A DNA stretch of 64,000 bases from an uncultured Gammaproteobacteria bacterium (GTDB taxonomy: Bacteria; Patescibacteriota; Patescibacteriia; Magasanikbacterales; GWA2-37-8): NCBI GenBank assembly GCA_964540825.1, contig CAZINT010000003.1:19250-83249 (forward strand), given 5' to 3'. Position numbers and translations under genes: made by a program. Positions 16,249-41,463 of this stretch are shown here, in pieces; position 1 is the first letter of the stretch; the number at the start of each line of letters is the position of its first letter. The notes below the pieces were generated by a model that worked only from the letters and a program-made list of their open reading frames with translations, ran no database searches and was not told the DNA's origin.

Positions 16249-17433
16249 TTAAAATTGATCAATATTTTTTTCAACAAAATCCCATACATGCCGGGCAACA
16301 TTATTTGACGCGCCTTCAATAGGAAAATGATGCAGATTGATAAAAGGCACGCCATTGCATTCAATAATCCCCCATTTCTGACGGGTTGGATCATCGGCAA
16401 TATGTTCAATGATAAAATCAAAACCTAAAATTGGATCGCCAACGATGCGGGCAGCCGCCTCGAGGCTACGTTTAATTTCTGGGTGCACCACAGCGGTAAC
16501 TTCGGCACTATACCCGCCATAGGAGATGCCGATTTTTTCAATCAGATCAATCGTTTTTCCTGCCGGAAGTACGGTGTCGAATGTATGCCCTTGCCGAGCC
16601 AAAAATTCAGCATGCTCGCTGCCAAGCACGACATCATGTACTTGCTGATGTTTATGATTATTTTTTTCAACCACCAGTTCGTTAATAGTATGGATGCCGT
16701 CGCCCGTAATTCGAGGCGGGTCGCCGCGCAAAACCCCCACCAGCACTCCATCAATGCACGTACCGCGATAAACGCTCCCAACGAGATGCTCTTCCATAAT
16801 AACCCAATAGCACAACTGCTTCGCACTTTTAAATGCCTTGTACAAATCTTTTTCCTCAAAAATATTTGTTGTGGTGTGCCGACCTCGTGAACCAAGCCGC
16901 GGCTTTATAATCACAGGCTTTTCAAGGGCAGCGAACATTTTTACGAGCGGTGAATATCGTGAAAAAACTCCGCCGCGCGCTACCGGAAGACCCGCCGCTT
17001 GTAATTTCTTTTTTAAAATCGCTTTATCATCCATCCACCATTCAGAACCGCTTGGTGTATGAGGTAGCCGCGGAATACCTGAAAAATAAAGCTGTTTTTT
17101 GCCAATAGTCACGCCGTAAGTGTCAGTGCCTTTCCCGGCAAATAGTATGGTGTGAATGGGTATTCCTCTTTTTACCGCTTCATCCCAAAGCACTTTTCCG
17201 CGTAAGCCAGGAATTTGTGCTGGATCAGTATTAATTTTGACGACACCTATTTTTCGAAAAAAAAGCAGTGCTCCCGTTGTGAACCACTCAAAACCCCGGC
17301 TAAATCCCCGATTGATAAAACTATTACCAACCAGTTGATTGAGGGAATTAAGCATAAGCGTGAGCGACTCGCTAAACCAGGCAAGCGCATGAGGTGTCGG
17401 GTTGTTGCCGCAAGCGCGGCATTTATTTGGCAT
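16249..17433 (-). CDS. ATP-grasp family ligase.
   Basis: 394 aa. VIIKPRLGSRGRHTTTNI nucleotide-binding loop and Mg-binding C-terminal region typical of the RimK / Ddl / CphA-type ATP-grasp fold. Overlaps the upstream gene by 11 nt. Confidence 0.6.
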   Translation of the reverse strand: MPNKCRACGNNPTPHALAWFSESLTLMLNSLNQLVGNSFINRGFSRGFEWFTTGALLFFRKIGVVKINTDPAQIPGLRGKVLWDEAVKRGIPIHTILFAGKGTDTYGVTIGKKQLYFSGIPRLPHTPSGSEWWMDDKAILKKKLQAAGLPVARGGVFSRYSPLVKMFAALEKPVIIKPRLGSRGRHTTTNIFEEKDLYKAFKSAKQLCYWVIMEEHLVGSVYRGTCIDGVLVGVLRGDPPRITGDGIHTINELVVEKNNHKHQQVHDVVLGSEHAEFLARQGHTFDTVLPAGKTIDLIEKIGISYGGYSAEVTAVVHPEIKRSLEAAARIVGDPILGFDFIIEHIADDPTRQKWGIIECNGVPFINLHHFPIEGASNNVARHVWDFVEKNIDQF

Positions 17434-18838: not shown

Positions 18839-18902
18839 ACTAACTAAACGATCGACAGCGCTATAATAAAAATACCCCGGTTACCAGGGTATTTTTAGCA
18901 TG

Positions 18903-18989
18903 CGGAGAGGGAGGGATTCGAACCCTCGAGGGCGGTGAAGCCCTGCAGCTTTAGCAAAGCTGGACGATAGACCACTCTGACACCTCTCC
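18903..18989 (-). tRNA. tRNA-Ser (anticodon GCU), class II with long variable arm.
   Basis: Reverse complement reads GGAGAGG...CAGCT-TTGCTAA-AGCTG, a 5-bp anticodon stem and 7-nt loop giving anticodon GCT. Variable arm AGGGC-TTCACC-GCCCT. T-arm GAGGG-TTCGAAT-CCCTC. G73 discriminator. CCA is not encoded. Confidence 0.8.
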
Positions 18990-19018
18990 CTGATTTACTA
19001 TATGGGTACGCTGGTTTG

Positions 19019-19105
19019 CGGAGAGACTGGGATTCGAACCCAGGGAACTCTTGCGAGTTCGGCAGTTTAGTAAACTGCTGCTTTCAACCGCTCAGCCATC
19101 TCTCC
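19019..19105 (-). tRNA. Class II tRNA with Ser-type identity elements. Anticodon loop reads UUACUAA, so the apparent anticodon is ACU.
   Basis: Reverse complement: GGAGAGA-TG-GCT-GAGCGGTTGAA-AGC-A-GCAGT-TTACTAA-ACTGC-(GAACTC-GCAA-GAGTTC)-CTGGG-TTCGAAT-CCCAG-TCTCTCC-G. The cloverleaf is clean, with G73 and a long variable arm as in tRNA-Ser. Position 34 is A rather than the G of its neighbour. Confidence 0.6.
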
Positions 19106-22451: not shown

Positions 22452-23174
22452 CTATCCCCGTGCGCCGACCAGACCCCAAACTTTTTCACACCCAGCCGCG
22501 AGTAAAACACGGGCGCATTCGCCCAGCGTACTGCCCGTGGTATAGACATCATCAACTAAAATTATGTTTTTTGATCCAGATGCTTGAGCAGCCTTAAATG
22601 CGCCATCCAAATTATGCTCTCGACCTTGTTTATCGAGCCGCGCTTGGTGAGGCGTATTTTTAATACGAATTAGAATTTTTGGCTCGATGCGTACAGAATA
22701 TCCAAGGCGCCGAAGACTTGCAGCGGCCTGACCAGCTAAAACTAACGATTGATTAAATCCCCGTTCTCGCTCGCGGCCGGGATGGAGCGGGACCGGTACT
22801 AAAACCACTTCTTCGCTTGGACGGAGCCATTCCGGAGGCTGGAAAACAAAATAAGTATAAAATAACTTTTCCCAGAGCCCGGCGGTATCAAGTGCTCCCT
22901 GGTATTTTAGAGCTTTGATAAGTTTGGCAGGCGGACCATCTTCTTCATAATTAAATAAAGCCGTAAGCCCGGCGAGGGATCCTACGGCTTTATTTAAAGT
23001 ACTCTGCTCTACTAAAAAAGGAAATTCTTTTTGACACTTTTCACACCACCACGATCCTTCGGACGAACACGTTACACAAAAACAAGGAAACAAGACCGAA
23101 CTTAAGAAATTACTGAGCCGCTTAAACAACATACTAAAAGTACGCTTCGGCAAAAATAAAATTATTTTCCCCAA
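22452..23174 (-). CDS. comFC: ComF-family phosphoribosyltransferase-domain competence protein (ComFC).
   Basis: N-terminal Cys4 zinc finger CFCVTC...CEKC. C-terminal PRTase loop IILVDDVYTTGSTL. Last gene of the T4SS-like operon (13-nt overlap with the upstream gene). Confidence 0.7.
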   Translation of the reverse strand: MGKIILFLPKRTFSMLFKRLSNFLSSVLFPCFCVTCSSEGSWWCEKCQKEFPFLVEQSTLNKAVGSLAGLTALFNYEEDGPPAKLIKALKYQGALDTAGLWEKLFYTYFVFQPPEWLRPSEEVVLVPVPLHPGRERERGFNQSLVLAGQAAASLRRLGYSVRIEPKILIRIKNTPHQARLDKQGREHNLDGAFKAAQASGSKNIILVDDVYTTGSTLGECARVLLAAGCEKVWGLVGARG

Positions 23175-23752
23175 ACAAAATTACTGACCAGCCAAGTATC
23201 CCCTGTTTTTACCATGGAGACCGTTATATTTTGCTGTACGCTGCTTGGCACAGTTCCCTGCAGTTGATTTCGGACAGTTTTGAAAAAGAATTCTGCATTT
23301 GTTCCTGACCATTTTTGAACATCCATGGTTACTACTTGAGTGGTAACTCCGGTAAAGACAGCTGCTTTAGCGGTAGTTTTGGGTGCAATTTTTTGCCACA
23401 GCTCAGGGGTTACGAGCGAGCGCACTTCTTCAAGATTTTGTGAATTGTTATCGGTTGAATACGTTCCATAGCGTTCCACAAAAATACGGGCTAATTGTTT
23501 GGCACCATTTTGTTCAATTTCATCCGATGTACGAGCGCGAATCGGCAGTCCGGCGGGAATAGTTGTAGGCTGCTGGCCAGTTTCAATCGGTAGGGTTTCT
23601 CCCGGAGTTGTACTGGTAGAAGATGGTGTTTGGCTTGTTCCTGCAGGCGTATTTTTATTTCGTGAGCGAACAAAGAAAATAGCCCCGATTATAAGTCCGA
23701 CGACTACAACTACGCCAATAATGATAAAAATACGAGAACGGAGTGAAAGCAT
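23162..23752 (-). CDS. Bitopic membrane protein of the T4SS-like operon. Possible VirB8-like (NTF2-like C-domain) component.
   Basis: N-terminal TM helix, Thr/Pro-rich linker, about 120-aa globular C-domain. The VirB8 assignment rests on architecture and position only. Confidence 0.35.
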   Translation of the reverse strand: MLSLRSRIFIIIGVVVVVGLIIGAIFFVRSRNKNTPAGTSQTPSSTSTTPGETLPIETGQQPTTIPAGLPIRARTSDEIEQNGAKQLARIFVERYGTYSTDNNSQNLEEVRSLVTPELWQKIAPKTTAKAAVFTGVTTQVVTMDVQKWSGTNAEFFFKTVRNQLQGTVPSSVQQNITVSMVKTGDTWLVSNFVWGK

Positions 23753-23790: not shown

Positions 23791-25671
23791 TTAAGCGGCG
23801 CTTTGCTGGTCAAATTCTTTTTTGGCTTTTTCAATATCCAAAAGCTGCTGCGGATTAGTAGTTACAATCTGGTCTTCGGTGTAGGACGCGACAACTTTAA
23901 TAGCGGCGTGCTTAAGCCCCGCAAAAAATATACCTTCCCCAATACCGCTTTCGAGGAGCAGATATTTTTCGCTGTCAGTCAGCAAGAACACTTTTTGGAT
24001 AAGATCAATTGCCGCCGGAGACTGACGCATCAGAAGCTGCAACGACGAGCTGGTAACAATGGCCTGACCGTACTGCGACTTTAAAAAGTCATTAACATCC
24101 TGAGTAATCGTCGTCACGCCAAGGAAATACTTGCGGCATCGTTTGACCAGCGCATAAATAAAGCGGGCACTATCTTCATGCTGCATGAGCCACCAGGCTT
24201 CATCAATAACGAGAATACGCTTTTTGCTTTCACTACGAACAACGTTCCAAATATAGTTAACAATAGCATAGATACCTAAGGGGCGCAGCTCATCTTCAAG
24301 ATCACGGACACTGAATACAACCAATTGGTTTTTCATGTCCACGTTTGTGGGCGAATTAAATAAGCCGCTAAATGTTCCTTCGGTAAACTTCTGAAGTTTC
24401 AAAATAAGCTGGCTTGAGCCTTCCATACCTTCCAAAATTTCTTGCAAATCCTGCATGATCGGCGGCTGAACCGTATTGAGATCCGCTTCGGCCGTGATAT
24501 CTTTTTTGGCATAGGTTTCAATGAGCGCCCTGTCGACAATGGAATCTTCTTCGGTGGTTATACCGCCAAGCATGATGCGCAAAAGCCCTTTGACGGTAAT
24601 AACCGCACCGCGAATAATATCTTCAGTCGAAAAATCTTTACCAGTCGGGCGCGGCAAATCAAACGGGTTAATTTTACTTTCACTTGAGAGTGAAATATTA
24701 ATATAGGTTCCACCAACCGCATCGGACAAATGTTTGTATTCCATTTCCGGGTCAATAATAATCACCTCGACGCCCATCATGAGACTGCGTAAAATTTCGA
24801 GTTTAATCGCATAACTTTTACCCGCACCAGAGGTCGCAAACACCACCATGTTAGCGTTCTGCAAAGAAAACCGGTCAAACAAAATAAGGCTGTTATTGTG
24901 GCGGTTGATGCCGTATAAAATACCATCGTCACTCGTAAGCTCTGCCGAAATAAACGGGAACGACGCGGCAATCGGCGACGAGTTCATGTTAAACGCAATC
25001 ATCAGCTCGTCATTACACAGCGGCAGCGTGGAGTTAAAACCCTGCTCGCCTTGGAACAATACTTTGCGGCTGCTGATCAGTTTAGCGCCGAAGATACCCT
25101 CGATGTCTTCCGAAATTTGATCCAGCTTTTCTTTGGTCTCGGCGTAGACAGTGACGTAAAAAGCAAATTGGAAAAAGTGCTCAACCCCCTGGGTTAAATT
25201 ATCGCGCAGCTGTTCAACATCGCGCAGCGCCGTCTCGCGGAGCGGATCCCTTGGGGCGCCCTTGTCGGCATCAGCGTTAATCTGGGCTTCGAGTGCACCA
25301 ACTTTGTTTTTGAGTTGTTTTAAAATAATTTCCGCCTTCACCGGATAAAAGAACATACTGATATCCATGGTGATCGACAAGTTAATCACCGGCGAACTCC
25401 AACCGATCGAAATATAACGGGGATATGAAACAATAAAAATCGTGCGGCAAAAAACCGTACCCAGTTGCAAAAAATTTGTTTCAACATTAAAGGCAGCGGG
25501 TGCAATAAGGTCGCGAATGGATACCACGCCTTCTCTGTAAATCCGCTCTTCTTCAAGCGTGATGAGTTCATCCTGCTCCTTTTTTTTGAGCACGGTTTCC
25601 TCGCTGACCATTTTTTTCTTGGCCAGTGATTCACTGTCTTTGCTGTTTAAAATCGACGGTTTAAAAGCCAT
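23791..25671 (-). CDS. VirB4/TrbE/CagE-family T4SS ATPase, C-terminal ATPase portion.
   Basis: Walker A VVFATSGAGKSYAIK. Walker B RILVIDEAWWLMQ. Overall VirB4 C-domain pattern. Confidence 0.85.
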   Translation of the reverse strand: MAFKPSILNSKDSESLAKKKMVSEETVLKKKEQDELITLEEERIYREGVVSIRDLIAPAAFNVETNFLQLGTVFCRTIFIVSYPRYISIGWSSPVINLSITMDISMFFYPVKAEIILKQLKNKVGALEAQINADADKGAPRDPLRETALRDVEQLRDNLTQGVEHFFQFAFYVTVYAETKEKLDQISEDIEGIFGAKLISSRKVLFQGEQGFNSTLPLCNDELMIAFNMNSSPIAASFPFISAELTSDDGILYGINRHNNSLILFDRFSLQNANMVVFATSGAGKSYAIKLEILRSLMMGVEVIIIDPEMEYKHLSDAVGGTYINISLSSESKINPFDLPRPTGKDFSTEDIIRGAVITVKGLLRIMLGGITTEEDSIVDRALIETYAKKDITAEADLNTVQPPIMQDLQEILEGMEGSSQLILKLQKFTEGTFSGLFNSPTNVDMKNQLVVFSVRDLEDELRPLGIYAIVNYIWNVVRSESKKRILVIDEAWWLMQHEDSARFIYALVKRCRKYFLGVTTITQDVNDFLKSQYGQAIVTSSSLQLLMRQSPAAIDLIQKVFLLTDSEKYLLLESGIGEGIFFAGLKHAAIKVVASYTEDQIVTTNPQQLLDIEKAKKEFDQQSAA

Positions 25672-25685
25672 ACAACTACAAAAAA

Positions 25686-26381
25686 TTAAACTCCTTCTTC
25701 CACCTGAAGGTCGCTAAGGGCCGGCAAGTGTTCGGTAAGCGCAATATCTGGATTATACGTTGAATAATAGAGCTCAATCAAAGCCTGTGTATCGAGCCTG
25801 ACTACCGTTAGGCCCATACTGCTGAGTCCTGATTCAATTTGCCTGACGCGCATATCTAAGTCGTATTTGCGTTTCAAAAATTTCTCTCCTTTAAGGTGCA
25901 CTGCATTGGCGGGATTGAAAATTTCACCGACCCGGGCAAAGAAACTTTTTTGACGATTGGAAACCGGATCATAGGGCACGATCACAAAAAACTGTTTGCT
26001 CATGATTTCGCCCAGGCTGATAAGTTCGGTAACGAACGATCGATAATCGGCAATCTGCGCACGCAAGAGTTCATTGACTTGTAAACGCTCTTTCTCGAGC
26101 AGCTTATCGAGGTAGGGTTTGATATAGAGCTTACGCGATTGGATAAGGACCTGCAGCGGGTATTCAAGTGAATTTAAAAACGATACATACGAAGAAATAA
26201 TAGCATTTTGCTCATCTTCGTTTTTGAGCGCAAAATTAATACTCGAGACAAGTAAAACAGCCCGGAGTGTTCCGTCTTTCATTACGACTGTATCGTTTTT
26301 GATTTCACCGATCAAAAGATGCAGTTGGGTCGGCGCGGTCCTTTTTTTATTTTTAGCTGCTTGTTTATTTTTCATACGCAC
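25686..26381 (-). CDS. VirB4 N-terminal domain encoded as a separate ORF.
   Basis: 231 aa. VMKDGTLRAVLLVSSINFALKNEDEQNAIISSYVSFLNSLEYPLQVLIQSRK resembles the VirB4/TrbE N-terminal domain. A TAA stop is followed by a 14-nt spacer with AAGGAG, then the ATG of the ATPase gene. Confidence 0.5.
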   Translation of the reverse strand: MRMKNKQAAKNKKRTAPTQLHLLIGEIKNDTVVMKDGTLRAVLLVSSINFALKNEDEQNAIISSYVSFLNSLEYPLQVLIQSRKLYIKPYLDKLLEKERLQVNELLRAQIADYRSFVTELISLGEIMSKQFFVIVPYDPVSNRQKSFFARVGEIFNPANAVHLKGEKFLKRKYDLDMRVRQIESGLSSMGLTVVRLDTQALIELYYSTYNPDIALTEHLPALSDLQVEEGV

Positions 26382-28942: not shown

Positions 28943-31705
28943 TTAAGGGGCACCCTTACCCTTCCAATCACTAAAAACCGTATCTCTGATTTTATTATAA
29001 ATATCTACGTTCCCAGTTGCAGTATAATGAGCTTTTAACTTTGTAAGGAGGGTTATCACATCTGCCCTAGCTGCCCCAACCATCTTACTGTCTTTGGTAC
29101 TATCCGAAAAAGCACTAGAGAAACCCGAAGCTGCATCACGCGTGTCTTTGAATTTACTCATTTTTTCAAACAAATTATCCACATCAAGTGACGTTGAGTT
29201 GCCAGCATCATCAGTAGAACCAAAACCTTGAATAAAGTCAGTTTGTTTAAAGTCTACACGAGGTGCGAAGTAAGATTGCATACCGCTCTTCAAATTTGCA
29301 GCAGTATCTGTTGCATTAGGACCAACCTGTCTTCGCGTCGAATCATAGGCGTTAAACAAGCGAAAAGCAGTATGTGCGCCTTGTGAGGGTTTGATTTTAT
29401 TAGCTGCAAGCACGGCCGGATCGTCCGAAAGCTCTTCTACAGCACCCGCAACTCTTACTTCACCTTTACCAGCCAGACTTTTTGTCGCATCAGAGAGCAG
29501 CGACAACACGGCCTGAGCCTCATCATTGTTACGGAAAGTTTTATCATCATTAATTAAGCTATGTGCAACATCAAATTCCCTTGCGTTAGTAATGGCGCTT
29601 CTGCCGGTTATAGCCTGCAGAATATCCTGCCCGGAAGATTCCGCACTCATACTCGCATTACCGCGAACTTTTTTAAGCACCGCCGCCATAACAGCGGTAT
29701 ATGTCTGCTGACCGTCTTTTGCGGACGCCGCCAAGAGTTGTGCCGCGCCGCGCCGCAAATTTTTTAATTTCTTCTCTTCTTCTTCCTTAATAGTACCCGC
29801 CAGTAATTTGGCATCTAGCGCCATTGTTTCGGTAGCAATTTTGACCGCTTCATTCACTTTTTCATTTTGATTCATGTTTAAAAATTCCTTTTGATCTTCT
29901 TCAAACTGATGATTATATACGGATTTTACTGTAGCCGCAGCTTCAGCATTTTTACCCTGTTCTCGAAGTAGCGCAGCACGCTGTTGAGCAATAGCTACCG
30001 CTTCCTGACGATGCAAACCTTTCCTGATGTTTTCAGCATTTGCTTGTGCTTCGATAGCTGTGTGCTCATACTCATGAAACTCAGGGTCGTGCTCGTCAAT
30101 TAAACGCTGCTCTTCTTTGGCATATTTTTCATCCTTCTTTTTTTCAGCCATTTTTTGGGCAGCATGCGCTTTTACACCGGTAAGGAGTTTTAATTTACCA
30201 CCCCAAGATTTACTTGTACTATAGGTTTCTTCAACAATTTCATGTACATTTTCGGCTGACTTTTCCCAATCTTCAGCGCGCTTAGCCTTGCGCCCCGCTG
30301 TTTCCCAAAAAGCACCTCCCACATATGCTTTGAGGTTGTTGTAAATACCACCATCTTTTGCCGCTTTATCTTCCCAAGCCTTAACTCTTTTGTTGCGAGC
30401 AATGTCGCTCACCCCCTTCAAAACGCCCAAACCACCCTTAATGGATTTTCCTAAATTCTGCCAATTCTCTCCACCAATTACCGGGAATTTCATAGCAATA
30501 CCCTTTGCTGCCGGAGCAACCACATTGCTTCCCGTCCACTTAGCAGCATTAAGGCCGCTAGCATAGCCGAATACTTTCTTACCAAAGTCAAGGCCGCTGC
30601 CAACAGCGTCTGCACCCATACCACCAAGCTCGCTGGCCGCTTTGGCCCCAACCATAAGCATGCCAATGGCAATAGCAAAACTGGCCATTTTTGACCAGGT
30701 CATGATAACCGAAATTCCGGCAGATTGTAGACCAGAAGCGAGCCCTCCTGTTCCAGGAGAAGTATCTTGATCAATTCTGTTTGGCGCAGTCGAGTGACTG
30801 GCAATATCACTGCTAATATCCCCACTTCCAAGCGTCACGAACGAAAGCCAGATAAAAAAGAGTAGTACCGGACCCGTAATAACATTGGCAATAAACTGGT
30901 CCCACCATTTGTGCGGAAATGATTGGGTAGAGGGCAAAATACTGAGCACAAAAGCGAGCGGCGAGAGCACAATCAAAACCCAGAGCACAACCATGCGCTG
31001 GATAAGCATGTAGAGGAATGCAAGCATAACCCCCAAAACCATCGCTGCAAACGTAATACCTCCAACTGCCGCAACAAATTGAGCCGTAGCGGTCAATTTG
31101 TCGGGAGTGACACCGTCAGCCAGTTCTAATATTTTATTAAGTTGAAAAGCGTTAATCAGGTTGCCGCCCGCAGTAGCAGCGATACCGTTCACAAACGTGG
31201 TCATGACAATTTGGCCGATATCGATAATTACTCCGCAAATCGTACGACTGAAGTTGACAATTATCGCGGTAAAAACAAACTTACCTAATAATTTTTTCCA
31301 TTCGTATTGCTCGCTGCCTAAAATAGTACCAAACGCAATCACCAAAAGAATGACCACAAAACCCATGTTGGTAAAGTCGCGAACCATCACCCACCCGACA
31401 TTAACAGCCGTTGAATCGAGGTAGCCATTATACCCAGCCAAGGTGATAATGAAGGTAAGGACAAATATAGTTAACTTAATAAAGAGCCCGGCAATAGCCA
31501 GGATGACTGTCGCAAACAGGTTAAGCCAAAAATCAAGGGAAATTATTCCAGCTGAACTGGCAGTCTGAGCAAAGGCTGGCGGCGCAAAAAACGTAACTGC
31601 TACTCCGCCAACAACAAGACAAATTAAAAAAACACCAATCCATTTACGGCGGAGGCGAAACCATGAACCGAGCGCCTGAAGTTTGGAAGCGACGTTCGCG
31701 AACAC
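28943..31705 (-). CDS. VirB6/TrbL-like polytopic membrane protein with a roughly 500-aa hydrophilic coiled-coil C-terminal extension. First gene of the T4SS-like operon.
   Basis: Signal-like N-terminus, then about eight TM helices including MVVLWVLIVLSPLAFVLSIL...VITGPVLLFFIWLSFV. C-terminal K/E-rich coiled coil. The track start (GTG at 31744) coincides with the TGTGCTATACT promoter element, so the in-frame GTG at 31705 is preferred. Confidence 0.6.
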   Translation of the reverse strand: MFANVASKLQALGSWFRLRRKWIGVFLICLVVGGVAVTFFAPPAFAQTASSAGIISLDFWLNLFATVILAIAGLFIKLTIFVLTFIITLAGYNGYLDSTAVNVGWVMVRDFTNMGFVVILLVIAFGTILGSEQYEWKKLLGKFVFTAIIVNFSRTICGVIIDIGQIVMTTFVNGIAATAGGNLINAFQLNKILELADGVTPDKLTATAQFVAAVGGITFAAMVLGVMLAFLYMLIQRMVVLWVLIVLSPLAFVLSILPSTQSFPHKWWDQFIANVITGPVLLFFIWLSFVTLGSGDISSDIASHSTAPNRIDQDTSPGTGGLASGLQSAGISVIMTWSKMASFAIAIGMLMVGAKAASELGGMGADAVGSGLDFGKKVFGYASGLNAAKWTGSNVVAPAAKGIAMKFPVIGGENWQNLGKSIKGGLGVLKGVSDIARNKRVKAWEDKAAKDGGIYNNLKAYVGGAFWETAGRKAKRAEDWEKSAENVHEIVEETYSTSKSWGGKLKLLTGVKAHAAQKMAEKKKDEKYAKEEQRLIDEHDPEFHEYEHTAIEAQANAENIRKGLHRQEAVAIAQQRAALLREQGKNAEAAATVKSVYNHQFEEDQKEFLNMNQNEKVNEAVKIATETMALDAKLLAGTIKEEEEKKLKNLRRGAAQLLAASAKDGQQTYTAVMAAVLKKVRGNASMSAESSGQDILQAITGRSAITNAREFDVAHSLINDDKTFRNNDEAQAVLSLLSDATKSLAGKGEVRVAGAVEELSDDPAVLAANKIKPSQGAHTAFRLFNAYDSTRRQVGPNATDTAANLKSGMQSYFAPRVDFKQTDFIQGFGSTDDAGNSTSLDVDNLFEKMSKFKDTRDAASGFSSAFSDSTKDSKMVGAARADVITLLTKLKAHYTATGNVDIYNKIRDTVFSDWKGKGAP

Positions 31706-31794
31706 AAGAAAAATTATAATTGAAAACTGAACGTAGTATAGCACACTTTTTGAGGCGCAACAACGTATGGGGATAAGCGGAAAAACAAAAAATT

Positions 31795-33534: not shown

Positions 33535-36500
33535 TTATTTTGTGACAGGCAAGATCACATCACGGCTAAATTTAATCCATGCTTTATCACTATTACATTC
33601 ATTCAGTCCAGCCGGTTTATTATAGCAGCCGCCTCCAGCGCGGCACGTGCCCGTGCACCACCCCCAATTATCTTCAACTCGTACAGCCGGCTTAAATTTA
33701 CAGCAACCATTTGGATACAGTTCCGGATTAGAACCACATTCATTAGCTGGATAGACCTTCGCTGTGCGCGCATCACATTGGTAGACATGATCGAATTGGA
33801 AGTATGAACTATCGCAGGTCTGATCAAGAATACGGCCAAAGCTTGGAGCTACGTTTGAAGCCAAACAAATTGGAGCGACCGAACAATCGTCGTCGGTACT
33901 GCAGGTCGCCTCGGTAGTCCGTTTAACAATACAGCGATTGACACCCGCATCACGGTCACAGGTGTTGCCTGCGCCACAGTCAGCGTCTGAAGTACAGCTT
34001 TTGTCTTGAAGCTCGCTTACTTGACACTGCTTTGGTTTGCCAGCGGCAACCTGAACACAGGCTGCAGGAGCAAAACCTCGATGGTTGCGATACAACCCGC
34101 TGTAATCTGCAGGAGCTGGACGATCACCCCAGTCAACCGAAATCTTGCGCAGCGGCATATGATTCGCATCGGCAAAAGCATAGAACTTAAGGAACACATG
34201 CCCGGTCTTACTGGTTATTTTAACATCACGATCGGAACGATCATTGACCGTTACCCCGGGTTCAGTACTATCTTCAATACATTGCTCCAGCGAATTACAC
34301 GGACCAAGCGGGAACACTACCGGAGGTTTAACCGGATTTTCAGCAGTTTCAGTTATATCATATGTCGGGTAGTCGGTCGTGCGCCAAATTCGATCAGCAC
34401 CTGTAGCGGTATAATTGAAATAATTAAGACCGTAGACCCGGGCAAACAATCCGCTCAGTGATGTTTCGCCATCAGATATTTCTCTTCCGGAAGCAACGCT
34501 GTTAGCCATAGTATATCCATCACCCATGGGCGTAGTTTGGTAACAGAGCCCATTTGGATTACTCGCTGTTCTTGGACATGAATAGGGTGAGCCGACAGTA
34601 AAGCCATTTATAGCCGGATTATTCTTCGTAATAGTATCAGCGAAAAATGTAGCACAAACAGTCTTGTTCATATCTGTACAGACTTTTTGCGTCTGGAATG
34701 GCGACATGAATATAGGTGAATTGGCCGCAGGAGGACTGAAAAGACCCATTTCTAAACTGCCGAACGGTGCAGTGAGCGTATCGTACGTATAGCCCAGGGT
34801 TGAAACCGTGTAGTTAGGACGAGTCGAGCTCTTCCACAGCCTGTCGGTCCATGGAGCCGTATCTCCCCGTGCTGGAGTCTGCGCATAATGAAGCGTTGCA
34901 TCTTCAACATAGGTACAAAGCTGCTTAAGTTTAAAGCTTACCTCATACCAAATATTTCCTCCGCCGCCAGAATTGTCACAGTAAGCCACGTCATACCCAA
35001 TGAGCGTACCCTGCGGTCCGCTGTTAAACTTAAGATTAACAGCATGCCAATTTCCTGACCCCGAAGCGTCATTTCTACCATTGCAAATTCCATACACAAC
35101 ACCATTCCGTTCGCTCACTTTACCTGAAGTGTGCGCGCCCCACATCTGACCTCCACCGATTGCAAGTGATTCAAAACCACTTTCTTTGAACGGATTGCCG
35201 CGCAAAACATCACAGCCGCCATTTTTCGATTCACAAATATTACCATTCTCATCTACATACCGGCCATTATTGGCTGCACCGCCATTATTACCATTATCGC
35301 TGCCATAGAGAAGGAGAAAATCATTGCTGCTATGAAGGTATTTGCCAGTTACCACATAACCACTCGTAACACCATTATTAGGATTTTTAAGCCGATTGAG
35401 CTTGTACTTTGCCTGTACCCCATCAGGGTCGGCGCCATTTGGAGTAGGGTCGTTGGGCCAAATGGAAAACCAACTATCCGGAGCAGGATCTTCGTTATCG
35501 CCACTAATAACTCTAAAATCAATTCTTTCAATGTCTTCTTTTGTAAATTTCCTTTCCTGATCAGTTGCAGCAATAAAGTCACGAACAAAGTACCCGCCTG
35601 TTGAGGCATTGTCATAGTTGAAATTTCCATTACCCGGGCTCATATACGTATAGTCGGTACCAAAACGCAGATTAGAATTTACTACTACGGTTGGTTTACC
35701 ATCGACAAGCGGAGCACCGCCCGCAACTGATGCCTGGGTACAGAAGTATCGACCGCTATTGGCAGGAGGATTATACCCGGCTTCCGGGTATAAATTATTT
35801 ACGTCAACCGAACCAACCAGGCTATCTACCGGTAACCAGCTAAGGCACGGGTGCTTCGTTGGATCGCCATTCACAATACGGGACAAATCTTGTTCCAGGC
35901 AGAAGCCTTTCCATCCCAGCAAGTTGTAGCTGCGTTTTTGTTTAAGACAAACACCGTCAGTTATCTTATTGCCCATAGCATCAACAACCGCTGTCATGGC
36001 GCCATTGGCTACTTTTGTCTTATAACAATCGTCATCAACATCACATTTATAACCATCACGCCCACCGCCCTGACAGATACCGCCCGGCACAACACCCTGA
36101 TTGGTATCGCCAACACGATCGGCAGCGTTTACCGAGCCGTTTGGATTGCTATAGTTCCAATATCTGGTTAAGGTATCGGCAAAATTTACCTTGGTATAAT
36201 CACACTCGCACAAATATCCTTGTGTACCATCTGAAGAAGGATTCTTTGTTTCCTGACAGAAGTTTGCACTGGCAAAGAAAGAGTTCTTGTTCGTGAGTGT
36301 AGTATACGGGAACGGTGAATCTTTTTCAGGGTACGCACGGCAGGACTGGCGGATGGAGTTGGTATTGAGGTCACTGGCCTTGCCGGTAATGTTCTTCATA
36401 CAAATTCCGTTCAAGCACGTTCCAGAGTTACCGTTTCCACAAACTGGATTGTTGGCGTCAACAATTTTACAAGCTACGTCGTCTTTAGTCTTGCCATCAG

Positions 36501-39500
36501 CACAATTAACGTTGCCGCAAGGAACTGTTTTTACTAAACGCCAATCTGGTGAACTATTCTTGGTACTGACATTAACCTGCGATAATTCTTCCGGCGGGAA
36601 GATGCCGGCAATCGAATAACCGGAAAAGTCCATTCCTTTCCAACTGATATCACGCTTGGTATAAAGCTCGGAATCCAAGACTTGGTTGCTATATTCATAA
36701 TCTGTATCAACCCAGTTCGCGCAGTTGGTTAAGTCGCCCTGCGATGGGTTATCCGGGGTAGCGTTGCAGCGGCCAATATCATCACAAATATTTTTCCACT
36801 TATTGGTTTTAATATCCCAAACTCGATGGGACGAACGGCACTGGAGCCATTCACCACAGCTGCGATCACGCGCTACTTTAATAAGGATATTAGCATCATT
36901 TTGGTTGGCGCCGGTTGCTGCTATCGGCTGTACACCATTAATATTCTCAAGCTTATTGCCGGCAGCATAGGTAGCTTCACTCGACCAGAACTTGGTCGGA
37001 TTACTTGTTTCATTAAAGAGTACGCAACCCTTTTTCTGATCTACCAAACCATCACAATCATCGCTCGAAATTTTTTGATTTTTTAAATAATAATACGGAT
37101 GATTATTATCGTTAGGATCAACAAACTCCGTACACTGATTTTGGGCTGCAGGGCACTCACCGACAAAATTTTGATATCGCGATCCATCCCCAGCAGACCA
37201 GAGGCCATAGCTTGAGCCTTCTTGAATATAATTTGGATAGCACGGCTGACTGCCAATATTCTGACAAGTTGCAGTGCCGCCGCAGTCGGCATTGGCTGTA
37301 CAGAATTTGCCGGCATTATTACTGCAAACACCGGTATTCTTCCAAAACCAACCGTTTGATTTATTACCGTTAACCGTAACGCCCGTCTGATACGTGCAAA
37401 TTTTTTGTCCGGTAATAAGCGGATCTTTGAAGTATGAGCTGCCAGCTGAACTCGTAAACGCCGAGCAGCCTACCGATTCTTTTTGACAGAGCGTATTTGT
37501 ATATGCAGCCGGATCATTCTTAACGAGCGTGGTCGTATACTGCATTCCACCCGGAGTTGCTTTTTGCACGCCTGCAAAGGTACAACCTAAATCGGCCACA
37601 TTACATGAAGCTGCTTGGTTGGCAACCAGATACACAGGCGTTGTGGTAGGAGTATCTGACGGTATATAGACAGTTGAATTGACAAACGAACCAGCGCCGG
37701 CAGCTTGAATAATTTCGGCCGCTGTATGACCTACAGCGTTTACGTAACAACCTTGCTGTCCAACCGGGATTTGACAGGAAACCGTGTCGCTGCCAATGGT
37801 AACTTGCACTTTTGTGCCGCCCGTACCGCTAAGCCAGATATTATACGCTTTAGGGCCTGGGTCAGTTGGAGTATTTTTGGTGTCAAACAACGCCGTACAG
37901 CCAATTGCTCCTTCGCGACAAAGATAATTAAAACCGGTAAGGTTAAACACTTTATTACTTGGATCCTTATACTGCATACACCCGAGTGCCTCACCAGGCA
38001 GATTGTCGTTTACATTACTATCACAGACAGCATCTACTTTAAGGGTGTTTTTTACTAAATAGACGTAGCCGGTTACTTCAACTAAGCGAATATTATCAAG
38101 ATATACTTTGGAAGCACCGTCATTTTTAAAGACTAAAGCACCGCTCGGGTCAGCCCCGGCATACTCAATCGGTCCAACGTGATATTGATTCCAGGTATCA
38201 CCGATACCAACCGTGCCCAAATCTTTGGAGTTGGTTCCGTCAGCGCTGGCCAAACTTACCGTTAACGACTGACTATCTCCCTTAGCCCAAAAAGTCAGAT
38301 CGTAACTCTTGTTCGTCGTAAGGCCAACACTCCGAATAAGCGTGTTGCTTCCTGAAAAACCTAAGGAATGTTCACCGGCATGAGTTGATTCATTTGAAAT
38401 TTGTACACTGGAAGGTTTCCAGGCAGCGAGCGCAGCGACACCGTTTTCAAACCTATCATTGACAACTTCACGGACATTGTTGCCCGCATTTCCTTTGTAA
38501 GCCCGGCAGGTATTCGCTCTTGCCTGGCACGATTTGCTGGTGCCTGCAGTGTTATCGACGCCATTTGGTAAGCCGTAGTAGAAACATGAACCATTCTTAT
38601 ACTCACCACCCTGGAGACAAACCTGGCACTGGTTATTGTTCCAAAAACCTTTTTTGGCATCACAGGTAGTTTGATCGTACGTTGTAGGAACCAGTTCGCT
38701 GTTATTTAAGCGGTAGGGAGTACAAGCATTGGTAACAGGAATTGTTTTTGAAAGCAACCGATAATAAACTGCGCCGGCATCATCATTAAACTGCCGGCAG
38801 TCCGCATCTGCCTGGCCTGCTTTATAGGCAGTTTCGTTACAAATTTTATCGTAAGCAGCTGCGTCACTTTGGGTCCGATAAAAATATTTCGGTCCACCCG
38901 TCTCGTCTTTAGCCAATGTATACACCTTCAATTGATAGCCGCCAACCGTAGAGCCTTCGTAGGTAATAAAATTCTTTTGAACATTCACGTCAGGCGTGGC
39001 ACAGGGGCGAAGATACGAATAATATTCAACATTCTCAACTTGGCCAAGCGCAGTACTGAGGTTGGTAAAGCTGCTGCACCCCTCTTCTTGAGCTGTACAA
39101 GTTGAACCTGAAGCCGGAATAATATAGGCAACATCTTGCCCGGTTGAATAGTTACTTGGCATTTCGCGATATCCGGCGTAACCAACACATTTAGCGTCAC
39201 ACTGATCGTTCCAGACAATTTGGTTGTCGATAACTTCCGCAGCCTTAAAGCGGCCTGGGATACGCGTACCGCCGTTGGCTGGCGCATACCAGTTACAGCT
39301 TACTTCATCAGGAATACAAGCGCCGGCATACTTGCTGCATTCGGCTCGCGGTGCAAGGCGGGCAAGATCAGCAGTAGTTTCGGGATAATCAACTTTTTTA
39401 GTTGCCGGATCACTATCATAACAGCCTAAATAGTCAGGGGCCTTTTTTAAATAAAGATTACTTGAACTATTTGATGCCAATTGAAACGCGGAGCAGCCTG

Positions 39501-41463
39501 CTGAATTAGCACTGCAGCTCGTTGAAACTTGGTTATTAAAATAAACACCATTATTCACATACCCTGCCCCAGCATCAGGGCCGGTTACATCTTGCCAATT
39601 TCCTTGGGCGTCTTGTGAAAGACTATAGGCAGTACAGCCAACAGTATCTTTAGTACAAGAATTAGTATCAAGACTGCGGGCAACATACGCGCGCTGTGCA
39701 CCGGCTGTATCGGTATATGACTGACAGGTGCGGAATTGGGCGTCACAACTATCAGCGGCAAAATTCCAGCTATTTTTTTCACGCGTACAATACCCATAGT
39801 TACTGCAGCTGCCGTCTTTGTTGTAGGCCACACAGCTTGTGAGATCAACACAATCTTCTAAACGATCCGGTGCGTCGCTGCTGAGAAGATTTGCGCCATA
39901 CCCAAGCGCACTACAACGAGCTGCCGGAGCTTTAATTACCCAATTCGGATCAATAAGGTGGCAAAATGGTTTACTAATCGGGTCATAGTTGACGCCAACG
40001 ATAGCACCAGAAGCATCGGTAATATAATTACAATCATTAAAGCCCTTTACAACCGTCCCCAGTGTCCAGGGGTTATCCGGATCACTCTGACTCGCAGCAA
40101 GCTCAAAACCAAGCGGTAAAATACGCGCCTGACGCAAAACTTTAATATTGGAATAGCAATAAGCTTTGTTGTAACAATTTATATCCGCATTATCCGCTTG
40201 TCGTGACGGTGGAATCAGTCTATAGTCGGCGTGAAGCCACCCCTTATCAAGCGCGTCTTGGATGGTTGTCGGGTTTCCGTTTCCCACTTCTTGAGCGGCC
40301 TGAACCAGACCGCTATCAGCACGGCAGTTATACAGTCCGGGGGCGGTTGGACAGTTATTTAATTGGCTTAAAATATTATATTGATCGACGGCGCTCGTGT
40401 TAACAGTCAAAAAACCGTTAAAGAGCTGTTCGGCCTGACGGCGGCCACCCGATGTACCGCTGTCAGCGTAATTTCCGACTGCATTACTTAACTGGTTACA
40501 CGCGTCACCCCCCGCACCGCCAATACACAGTCCAAACGGCAAAATACCTTTCTGTTGAAAGTTTTTAAGAACCGTACCTGACAAAGTGGTTAAGAAAAAG
40601 TTGGCCAATGCCCCAGGAAGATTTTTGTAGTTACCCGAATTAATAGCGGCCGTGATTTGATCGCCGCTTTTATCAATTTGTTTTGAATTGCCAGTTGCTT
40701 TAAATTCTTCTCCAAGGACTGCGGCCGGAGTTTGAATATCGCCTGAAATAGTTGTTTTTTTATCAATAAAACCTTGGTTAGCGATACGTTCCGAGTTGGC
40801 AGCATTGACCGCATTCGCCGTACGTTCGTTCAGTTTAGCTGTGGCTGCTAGCTGAATACCAAGACCGGTCTGATCAACCTGAAAAGCGGTATTAAACTGT
40901 TGTTCAATAGATCCGGCAGCGGCCGTAAACTTACTTCTCCAGGCGTCAGCACTCCAATTCTTTTGAAAATCAGTAAACGTACAAGCAGGTTTACTGGTAG
41001 GATCGCTCGTGCCCCCACCCAAATTAACTCTAAGTCCAACCTTCATCGCTAAATCAAGTTTGGGGTCAGGAATACTGCATAAGTTAAAACCGGCACCTTT
41101 ACTTAATTCTTCAATACCGTGACCAAGCGCATCATTACCGACATTTTTGAGATAATCACCAAAACTCTTGGTCTGCGCAAAAGCGCTCTGACCTTTACCG
41201 CCACTCGCGAGCCACACCGCCGAGTCATAGGCAACTTTTCGAAGGACGTACGAAACTACCGTGCTGGCTGCTGCCTGCACCGCTACTTTTAACCCCTCTA
41301 AAATTTCATCCTTGATCTTGAAGGCATTTTCAATTGGATTTGCTGTAATGACAACCGGGATGGTTGCTTTGGCTGGCGCCGGAAAGCCAAATGAACCTAC
41401 CACACTTACAAAAGCGACCACGGCAAGCATGCCGACCAAACTCATTTTTTTAAATAGAGACAT
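33535..41463 (-). CDS. Giant (2642 aa) secreted Cys-rich surface protein with an internal CBM/jelly-roll-like domain. Putative adhesin.
   Basis: Signal peptide MSLFKKMSLVGMLAVVAFVSVVGSFGFPAPAKA. Well over 100 Cys in CxxxC, CxC and GxC contexts, with G/N/T/S-rich composition. A CBM-like beta-sandwich segment at about 38060-38440: AAWKPSSVQISNESTHAGEHSLGFSG...YDLTFWAKG...YLDNIRLVEV. No TM or sortase motif. Confidence 0.8.
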   Translation of the reverse strand: MSLFKKMSLVGMLAVVAFVSVVGSFGFPAPAKATIPVVITANPIENAFKIKDEILEGLKVAVQAAASTVVSYVLRKVAYDSAVWLASGGKGQSAFAQTKSFGDYLKNVGNDALGHGIEELSKGAGFNLCSIPDPKLDLAMKVGLRVNLGGGTSDPTSKPACTFTDFQKNWSADAWRSKFTAAAGSIEQQFNTAFQVDQTGLGIQLAATAKLNERTANAVNAANSERIANQGFIDKKTTISGDIQTPAAVLGEEFKATGNSKQIDKSGDQITAAINSGNYKNLPGALANFFLTTLSGTVLKNFQQKGILPFGLCIGGAGGDACNQLSNAVGNYADSGTSGGRRQAEQLFNGFLTVNTSAVDQYNILSQLNNCPTAPGLYNCRADSGLVQAAQEVGNGNPTTIQDALDKGWLHADYRLIPPSRQADNADINCYNKAYCYSNIKVLRQARILPLGFELAASQSDPDNPWTLGTVVKGFNDCNYITDASGAIVGVNYDPISKPFCHLIDPNWVIKAPAARCSALGYGANLLSSDAPDRLEDCVDLTSCVAYNKDGSCSNYGYCTREKNSWNFAADSCDAQFRTCQSYTDTAGAQRAYVARSLDTNSCTKDTVGCTAYSLSQDAQGNWQDVTGPDAGAGYVNNGVYFNNQVSTSCSANSAGCSAFQLASNSSSNLYLKKAPDYLGCYDSDPATKKVDYPETTADLARLAPRAECSKYAGACIPDEVSCNWYAPANGGTRIPGRFKAAEVIDNQIVWNDQCDAKCVGYAGYREMPSNYSTGQDVAYIIPASGSTCTAQEEGCSSFTNLSTALGQVENVEYYSYLRPCATPDVNVQKNFITYEGSTVGGYQLKVYTLAKDETGGPKYFYRTQSDAAAYDKICNETAYKAGQADADCRQFNDDAGAVYYRLLSKTIPVTNACTPYRLNNSELVPTTYDQTTCDAKKGFWNNNQCQVCLQGGEYKNGSCFYYGLPNGVDNTAGTSKSCQARANTCRAYKGNAGNNVREVVNDRFENGVAALAAWKPSSVQISNESTHAGEHSLGFSGSNTLIRSVGLTTNKSYDLTFWAKGDSQSLTVSLASADGTNSKDLGTVGIGDTWNQYHVGPIEYAGADPSGALVFKNDGASKVYLDNIRLVEVTGYVYLVKNTLKVDAVCDSNVNDNLPGEALGCMQYKDPSNKVFNLTGFNYLCREGAIGCTALFDTKNTPTDPGPKAYNIWLSGTGGTKVQVTIGSDTVSCQIPVGQQGCYVNAVGHTAAEIIQAAGAGSFVNSTVYIPSDTPTTTPVYLVANQAASCNVADLGCTFAGVQKATPGGMQYTTTLVKNDPAAYTNTLCQKESVGCSAFTSSAGSSYFKDPLITGQKICTYQTGVTVNGNKSNGWFWKNTGVCSNNAGKFCTANADCGGTATCQNIGSQPCYPNYIQEGSSYGLWSAGDGSRYQNFVGECPAAQNQCTEFVDPNDNNHPYYYLKNQKISSDDCDGLVDQKKGCVLFNETSNPTKFWSSEATYAAGNKLENINGVQPIAATGANQNDANILIKVARDRSCGEWLQCRSSHRVWDIKTNKWKNICDDIGRCNATPDNPSQGDLTNCANWVDTDYEYSNQVLDSELYTKRDISWKGMDFSGYSIAGIFPPEELSQVNVSTKNSSPDWRLVKTVPCGNVNCADGKTKDDVACKIVDANNPVCGNGNSGTCLNGICMKNITGKASDLNTNSIRQSCRAYPEKDSPFPYTTLTNKNSFFASANFCQETKNPSSDGTQGYLCECDYTKVNFADTLTRYWNYSNPNGSVNAADRVGDTNQGVVPGGICQGGGRDGYKCDVDDDCYKTKVANGAMTAVVDAMGNKITDGVCLKQKRSYNLLGWKGFCLEQDLSRIVNGDPTKHPCLSWLPVDSLVGSVDVNNLYPEAGYNPPANSGRYFCTQASVAGGAPLVDGKPTVVVNSNLRFGTDYTYMSPGNGNFNYDNASTGGYFVRDFIAATDQERKFTKEDIERIDFRVISGDNEDPAPDSWFSIWPNDPTPNGADPDGVQAKYKLNRLKNPNNGVTSGYVVTGKYLHSSNDFLLLYGSDNGNNGGAANNGRYVDENGNICESKNGGCDVLRGNPFKESGFESLAIGGGQMWGAHTSGKVSERNGVVYGICNGRNDASGSGNWHAVNLKFNSGPQGTLIGYDVAYCDNSGGGGNIWYEVSFKLKQLCTYVEDATLHYAQTPARGDTAPWTDRLWKSSTRPNYTVSTLGYTYDTLTAPFGSLEMGLFSPPAANSPIFMSPFQTQKVCTDMNKTVCATFFADTITKNNPAINGFTVGSPYSCPRTASNPNGLCYQTTPMGDGYTMANSVASGREISDGETSLSGLFARVYGLNYFNYTATGADRIWRTTDYPTYDITETAENPVKPPVVFPLGPCNSLEQCIEDSTEPGVTVNDRSDRDVKITSKTGHVFLKFYAFADANHMPLRKISVDWGDRPAPADYSGLYRNHRGFAPAACVQVAAGKPKQCQVSELQDKSCTSDADCGAGNTCDRDAGVNRCIVKRTTEATCSTDDDCSVAPICLASNVAPSFGRILDQTCDSSYFQFDHVYQCDARTAKVYPANECGSNPELYPNGCCKFKPAVRVEDNWGWCTGTCRAGGGCYNKPAGLNECNSDKAWIKFSRDVILPVTK

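Follow-up and report, generated by a model that had tools for sequence, protein, structure and literature searches.

A chromosomal type IV secretion locus of a Magasanikbacteria-type genome in which VirB4 is very probably made from two adjacent genes

We analyzed a 64,000-nucleotide stretch of DNA (the window; contig CAZINT010000003.1 of assembly GCA_964540825.1, positions 19,250 to 83,249 of the forward strand) that carries genes of a type IV secretion system (T4SS), and in it two consecutive open reading frames (ORFs) that together resemble the ATPase VirB4. ORF1 denotes the upstream, TrsD/TraD-like gene and ORF2 the downstream VirB4 ATPase gene; both lie on the minus strand, and all coordinates are those of the window (Table 1). 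An earlier reading of the letters without database searches (the sequence-only reading) had proposed that the upstream ORF, of 231 aa, is the VirB4 N-terminal domain and the downstream ORF, of 626 aa, the Walker A/B ATPase, in a genuine two-gene arrangement rather than a recent disruption or artefact. Direct reading confirmed the coordinates it had given, as well as the TAA stop and the 14-nt spacer between the genes. In the ORF list, ORF1 occupies 25686..26381 and has 231 aa if begun at GTG; ORF2 occupies 23791..25671, begins with ATG and has 626 aa. The length of ORF1 held only for the GTG at 26381. The start that is kept in the family is the ATG at 26375, which gives 229 aa, as judged from an identical public protein (P0001) and from the homologue alignment, in which M3 (231-aa numbering) is nearly invariant. 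This ATG begins 6 nt past the stop of the preceding prgI-like gene.

The stop codon of ORF1 is TAA at 25686-25688, and the junction reads GTG GAA GAA GGA GTT TAA TTTTTTGTAGTTGT ATG GCT. The ATG of ORF2 lies 17 nt on from the first base of the stop; the two ORFs are thus in different frames, and a single nonsense change could not have made the split. The sequence-only reading had also placed an AAGGAG Shine-Dalgarno (SD) site in the spacer as the translation signal of the downstream gene, and this part of it did not survive. The motif lies at 25696-25691, in the last coding codons of ORF1 (GAA GAA GGA GTT TAA), and ends 19 nt before the ORF2 ATG, which is too distant for a canonical SD site. 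An SD core (at least 4 nt) 4-13 nt upstream of the virB4 ATG was present in just 3 of the 79 related loci described below, so an SD site upstream of virB4 is not a conserved trait of the family. The two-gene interpretation is supported, but for reasons other than the SD argument.

ORF2 passed the curated threshold of the NCBIfam profile conju_CD1110 (NF045971; 348.2 bits, cut-off 325, E = 9.6e-104), and its residues 248-604 matched PDB 4AG5, the crystallised VirB4 C-terminal domain (E = 7.7e-46). It has a Walker A motif, GAGKS, at residues 282-286 and a Walker B-like motif, VIDEAW, at 488-493; across 34 ORF2 homologues, G282, G284, K285, S286, D490 and E491 were invariant and A283 nearly so. 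The proposed identity of this ORF as the Walker A/B ATPase is borne out by these matches. The best 120 ORF2 homologues were 559-643 aa long and the majority aligned over the whole query, which indicates that the ATG start is conserved. Its nearest VirB4 neighbours were from Patescibacteria (80-100% identity), and no transmembrane segment was predicted in it. The matches to longer VirB4 profiles begin well inside them, spanning positions 171-728 of 752 in CD1110 and 275-889 of 894 in VirB4_plasma, and starting at position 236 of 792 in VirB4_CagE. Residues 48-585 aligned with residues 221-772 of PrgJ of pCF10 (796 aa), an offset that gives a one-piece VirB4 ~170-220 additional N-terminal residues compared with ORF2. 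CD1110 membership also calls for a complete N-terminal domain in one polypeptide; ORF2 lacks part of this domain and retains ~247 residues of it ahead of the ATPase domain.

We then compared the product of ORF1 with the same kinds of resources. It matched the NCBIfam TrsD/TraD profile (NF041427) over residues 21-137 only (35.4 bits, E = 9.5e-9), positions 90-233 of 894 in VirB4_plasma (E = 7.5e-8) and positions 22-78 of 752 in CD1110 (E = 0.011). Using hhalign, the ORF1 family profile aligned end to end with TrsD of pGO1 (13-209 against 31-217 of 227; probability 80%, E = 1.4e-5). An AlphaFold2 model of ORF1 had a predicted local distance difference test (pLDDT) score of 88, and when it was searched against PDB with Foldseek the top 14 chains were all TrwK/VirB4 of R388 (probability 0.99-1.00, template modelling score ~0.45 over ~215 columns), after which the next match fell to a probability of 0.35. 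A phmmer search of ORF1 against PDB sequences returned only a chance-level match (2FEA, E = 0.087), and no transmembrane segment was predicted. We found 5,482 ORF1 homologues, of which the best 120 were all 198-237 aa long. The gene context is that of TrsD/TraD: a PrgI-like gene, 6 nt, ORF1, 14 nt and a short-form VirB4. By sequence comparison, we regard ORF1 as a remote TrsD/TraD homologue that is no member of the family by the NCBI threshold. The family PF26593 is precomputed on all ORF1 homologues, and was absent from our local Pfam scan and from our literature search. The TraD of a paper on pELF plasmids was set aside as irrelevant to ORF1, being a different, VirD4-like protein.

When both ORFs were compared with full-length VirB4, they matched adjoining, non-overlapping positions. 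Because the profile coordinates are complementary and ORF2 is without the first ~170-220 positions, the simplest reading is that the TrsD-like protein supplies the N-proximal part of VirB4 that ORF2 lacks. Judged by these coordinates, the break falls inside the VirB4 N-terminal domain, rather than between that domain and the ATPase. The proposal that ORF1 is the VirB4 N-terminal domain therefore stands in part: it does match N-terminal positions of VirB4, but it covers only a portion of the domain, the remainder of which is in ORF2.

To determine how widely the split is shared, we scanned related loci with one genome per species. The scan used a closer alignment (A2), the diverse one (A1) being too variable; 545 relatives were returned, 80 loci were kept and 79 had enough DNA to judge. 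Counterparts of ORF1 and ORF2 were separate and in the same order in 79 of these 79 species-level loci, so the orthologous loci show the same split as the window, and a PrgI-like gene lay directly upstream in 78 of them. Between the two genes, gaps spanned 1-472 nt; 1 nt (TAATATG) was the commonest length, and ~57% of the gaps were 10 nt or less. One outlier (L078) had a nominal 32-nt overlap that is probably a misassigned start. All three relative frames occurred at these junctions, as did TAA, TAG and TGA stops. Among the eight closest relatives, the proportion of nonsynonymous differences (pN) in ORF1 was 0.04-0.18 against a saturated synonymous proportion (pS) of ~0.7-0.8, and pN in ORF2 was 0.01-0.13; both genes are under strong purifying selection. 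Both proteins also occur unchanged on a 215-kb public contig. An exhaustive search of 1.8 billion representatives (50% clustering) gave 2,019 ORF1 matches, and among the best 150 of these, which were 112-452 aa long, none was fused to an ATPase; in the longer ones the additional length consisted only of low-complexity tails. The two-gene split is ancient.

Some relatives depart from the compact form seen in the window. Seven junctions (L005, L046, L058, L063, L067, L070 and L080) hold inserts of 99-175 nt in which inverted or direct repeats abound, and the 472-nt insert of L072 apparently has a small ORF of its own. These inserts could be small mobile or repeat elements that landed in the intergenic site. 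About one third of the distant TrsD-like representatives (P0122-P0270) carry N- or C-terminal low-complexity tails of 40-220 aa, rich in P, Q, A and T; no transmembrane segments and no ATPase similarity were found in these tailed representatives.

A close described parallel is the pGO1/pSK41 system of Staphylococcus aureus (MPF_FATA, pGO1 subclass), which has the same gene order of a small membrane protein, TrsD and VirB4 (trsC 135 aa, trsD 227 aa, trsE 672 aa) and, likewise, a 14-nt gap between trsD and trsE. ORF2 residues 28-593 aligned to TrsE residues 6-617 (E = 1e-47), and since ORF2 residue 28 aligns with TrsE residue 6, the break point is identical in pGO1. The similarity is remote, with 23% identity between the VirB4 proteins and an ORF1 score against the TrsD hidden Markov model that is under the NCBIfam cut-off. 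The window locus also differs from pGO1 in being chromosomal, in a Candidate Phyla Radiation (CPR) genome, in having no relaxase among the genes examined here, and in that its upstream membrane protein matches PrgI, not TrsC. Firmicutes megaplasmids offer similar arrangements, such as a Pontibacillus triplet of 116-, 274- and 621-aa proteins and a Mesobacillus trsD followed by a DUF87 protein.

In other systems the same region is joined to one neighbour or the other. In pCF10, PrgI directly precedes the one-piece PrgJ. PrgJ and R388 TrwK (823 aa) share the ATPase domain, and their N-terminal regions follow the order found here; it is TrwK that the ORF1 fold matches; unlike the window, where the N-proximal ~170-220 residues form a separate polypeptide, they hold these residues covalently within VirB4. 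On the Embleya plasmid NZ_CP108778.1, a 349-aa "PrgI family protein" (L083:3629-4678) contains an ORF1-homologous region upstream of a separate VirB4-type ATPase. In contrast to the window, the TrsD-like region is there fused to the VirB3/PrgI membrane part, and an XF1762-family gene stands between the fusion and the ATPase. Actinobacterial "PrgI family" proteins of ~350-480 aa appear more generally to be fusions of VirB3/PrgI with the VirB4 N-terminal domain, with a separate ATPase. In the window, the PrgI-like protein, ORF1 and the N-part of ORF2 match successive stretches of the actinobacterial NCBIfam profile SCO6880.

The arrangement in the window agrees with the Patescibacteria T4SS loci described by Quinonero-Coronel et al. 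2025 (PMC12102498), with adjacent PrgI/VirB3, TrsD homologue and VirB4 genes, comF nearby and no substantive difference. That study reports TrsD as the most abundant Patescibacteria T4SS component, attributes to it a remote homology with the VirB4 N-terminus and counts 1,664 cases across Patescibacteria in which TrsD homologues adjoin virB4. We cite the remote homology from this source since TrsD goes unnamed in the main text of Guglielmini 2014. The 2025 study further lists a TrsD homologue as essential in Southlakia epibionticum ML1, with no function assigned, and notes that comF adjoins T4SS loci in class ABY1 (PMC12102498). The window has the VirB4, TrsD and PrgI/VirB3 homologues expected of a T4SS in a Patescibacteria genome, and its closest loci are from metagenome-assembled genomes (MAGs) of Magasanikbacteria/Patescibacteria.

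We consider it very likely that this is the standard T4SS core, carried on the chromosome, of a Magasanikbacteria-type (Patescibacteria/CPR) genome, in which a PrgI/VirB3-like gene is followed by two separate, closely spaced genes of one orientation that together encode VirB4. The upstream member of the pair would give a soluble 229-aa TrsD/TraD-like protein, the counterpart of the initial ~170-220 positions in a one-piece VirB4; the downstream member would give a 626-aa VirB4 that holds what remains of the N-terminal domain along with the Walker A/B ATPase domain. The two proteins probably join non-covalently and so rebuild a VirB4-like N-terminal domain. In R388, VirB3 is the docking partner of the VirB4 N-terminal domain, which also mediates dimer contacts of VirB4 and anchoring at the membrane (review, PMC12857230). 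The close spacing (6 nt after prgI and 14 nt before virB4) suggests that the genes are co-transcribed, and this would help keep the protein amounts in balance; translation of virB4 appears to be SD-independent. Several results weigh against this interpretation. The TrsD score of ORF1 is far under the curated NF041427 cut-off of 200 bits, and the ORF1 profile had no significant match to single-sequence PrgJ (E = 0.12), though the alignment lay at the expected N-terminal place. The AlphaFold2 model of ORF2, built with 34 close homologues, was poor (pLDDT 48, predicted template modelling score 0.37) and was left out of the fold search, so the three-dimensional position of the break comes from sequence coordinates alone. 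Finally, TrsD-like proteins of other CPR lineages have disordered tails of 40-220 aa, and in Gracilibacteria the TrsD-like genes lie apart from virB4 (PMC12102498); both would also fit a more independent role.

A stop codon and a short spacer inside what looks like a single protein could be the mark of a recently disrupted VirB4 pseudogene, or of a sequencing or assembly error that divides one gene. We give this next to no credence: the frames of the two ORFs differ, identical proteins are found on the 215-kb public contig, 79 independent species-level assemblies are split alike with unrelated junction sequences, pN stays at 0.04-0.18 with synonymous sites saturated, and the break point is common to pGO1. 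The sequence-only reading was therefore right to favour a genuine two-gene VirB4, now on the strength of the colinear profiles, the TrwK/VirB4 fold, the 79 of 79 loci and the split lengths of the closest homologues. Programmed recoding, in which frameshifting or readthrough would fuse both ORFs into a full-length VirB4, is suggested by the short spacer, a T-rich run past the stop and the placement of the ORFs one frame apart. It seems very improbable given that the relatives have gaps of 1-472 nt in all three relative frames, that their junctions have no slippery or structured motif in common and one has an additional ORF between the genes, and that virtually all VirB4 homologues begin at the same methionine. 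We take the conservation in relatives, together with selection, to exclude conserved recoding as well as a pseudogene or an error of assembly.

What merits more weight, while still improbable in our view, is a TrsD-like protein that serves as an independent accessory factor, such as an adaptor, a regulator or a chaperone of assembly, and shares ancestry with the VirB4 N-terminus without simply completing the VirB4 fold. The long disordered tails of CPR relatives and the Gracilibacteria gene that does not adjoin virB4 speak for such a factor, as do the actinobacterial relatives in which the TrsD-like region is joined to PrgI, not to the ATPase, and the SCO6880 family, which unites PrgI with VirB4 N-terminal-domain regions. 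Against it stand the complementary profile coordinates of ORF1 and ORF2, without overlap, and an ORF2 that is without the first ~170-220 positions of both PrgJ and CD1110. An accessory role and a split domain are compatible and not mutually exclusive. The break position is the same in pGO1 and Patescibacteria, while Actinobacteria attach the module to VirB3/PrgI; for this reason the TrsD-like module is perhaps an autonomous adaptor of ancient origin that links VirB3 to the ATPase, with the two-piece form ancestral to, or at least as old as, the one-piece VirB4 of monoderms and not derived by fission. We offer this tentatively, as the less likely course of events. If it were true, a separate module could let cells regulate docking of the motor independently of the ATPase.

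We also characterized the genes around the two VirB4 genes. The PrgI-like protein has one strong hydrophobic segment (residues 48-66). No significant family match was found in the Pfam or NCBIfam scans for the 196-aa protein downstream of ORF2. The ComFC-like gene beside it had weak Pfam matches to Pribosyltran (E = 1.6e-4, 21.5 bits, cut-off 26.3) and to the double zinc ribbon DZR_2 (E = 0.013, 15.8 bits, cut-off 27). Upstream in the same string of genes, the 933-aa polytopic membrane protein had no Pfam or NCBIfam match; its position and topology make it a candidate for an extended VirB6/PrgH-like channel subunit.

Table 1. Features of the T4SS locus, in window coordinates.
Feature	Coordinates	Strand	Evidence and remarks
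PrgI/VirB3-like small membrane protein, 143 aa	26382..26813	-	Pfam PrgI PF12666, E = 4.2e-10, 40.5 bits, cut-off 27; first of the PrgI - TrsD-like - VirB4 triplet
TrsD/TraD-like protein (ORF1), putative N-proximal piece detached from the VirB4 N-terminal domain	25686..26375 (229 aa; from GTG 26381, 231 aa)	-	Profiles, AlphaFold2 fold
Intergenic spacer TTTTTTGTAGTTGT, 14 nt	25672..25685	-	Direct reading; without SD motif
VirB4 ATPase (ORF2), distal N-terminal domain (~residues 1-247) and C-terminal P-loop ATPase domain	23791..25671	-	NCBIfam, PDB 4AG5, Walker motifs
196-aa protein, last gene before comFC	23162..23752	-	One N-terminal transmembrane segment, residues 8-26
ComFC-like phosphoribosyltransferase-family gene beside the T4SS genes	22452..23174	-	Weak sub-threshold Pfam hints
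Polytopic membrane protein of 933 aa, further upstream within the gene string	28943..31744	-	Residues 1-300 hold ~7-8 hydrophobic segments; ~630-aa soluble part

Other parts of the window held further observations. Upstream of the T4SS genes and co-oriented with them is a giant ORF of 2,642 aa (33535-41463, minus strand) with an N-terminal hydrophobic segment; it had only weak sub-threshold matches, to CBM_4_9 and to a cysteine-rich Dickkopf_N module, and could be of surface or adhesin type. Two type-II tRNA-Ser genes lie side by side (19018-19105 and 18902-18989, both on the minus strand), each scoring above the Rfam tRNA threshold. One has the usual GCT anticodon; the loop of the other, TT-ACT-AA, gives the anticodon ACU, with an A at position 34 that is unusual for a bacterial Ser tRNA. 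For a 394-aa ORF (16249-17433, minus strand), the match to cyanophycin synthetase was confined to the central ATP-grasp part (positions 163-470 of 862, E = 1.5e-54) and fell far under the cut-off of that family; the ORF is a short stand-alone ligase that adjoins a 471-aa ORF without a family match. Among the closest relatives (L001-L080), many are MAGs whose records bear the name "uncultured Gammaproteobacteria bacterium". Since their T4SS proteins share 60-97% identity with those of Magasanikbacteria, these record names look like taxonomic mislabels.

The two-gene arrangement has already been published, and the window is one more instance of it. Beyond the earlier description (PMC12102498), our analysis maps the break point to a place inside the N-terminal domain and adds junction statistics for 79 species. 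For annotation, it means that the short-form VirB4 genes of CPR genomes should not be labelled as truncated genes or pseudogenes, and that the upstream 229-aa gene, called "hypothetical" or "TraC family", belongs to the motor. It also offers a hypothesis for the role of TrsD/TraD, which would act as a separately made N-proximal half of the VirB4 N-terminal domain, in contact with VirB3/PrgI. As the T4SS is essential in the sole cultivated Patescibacterium tested, knowing that its motor has two parts would be useful for structural and genetic work.

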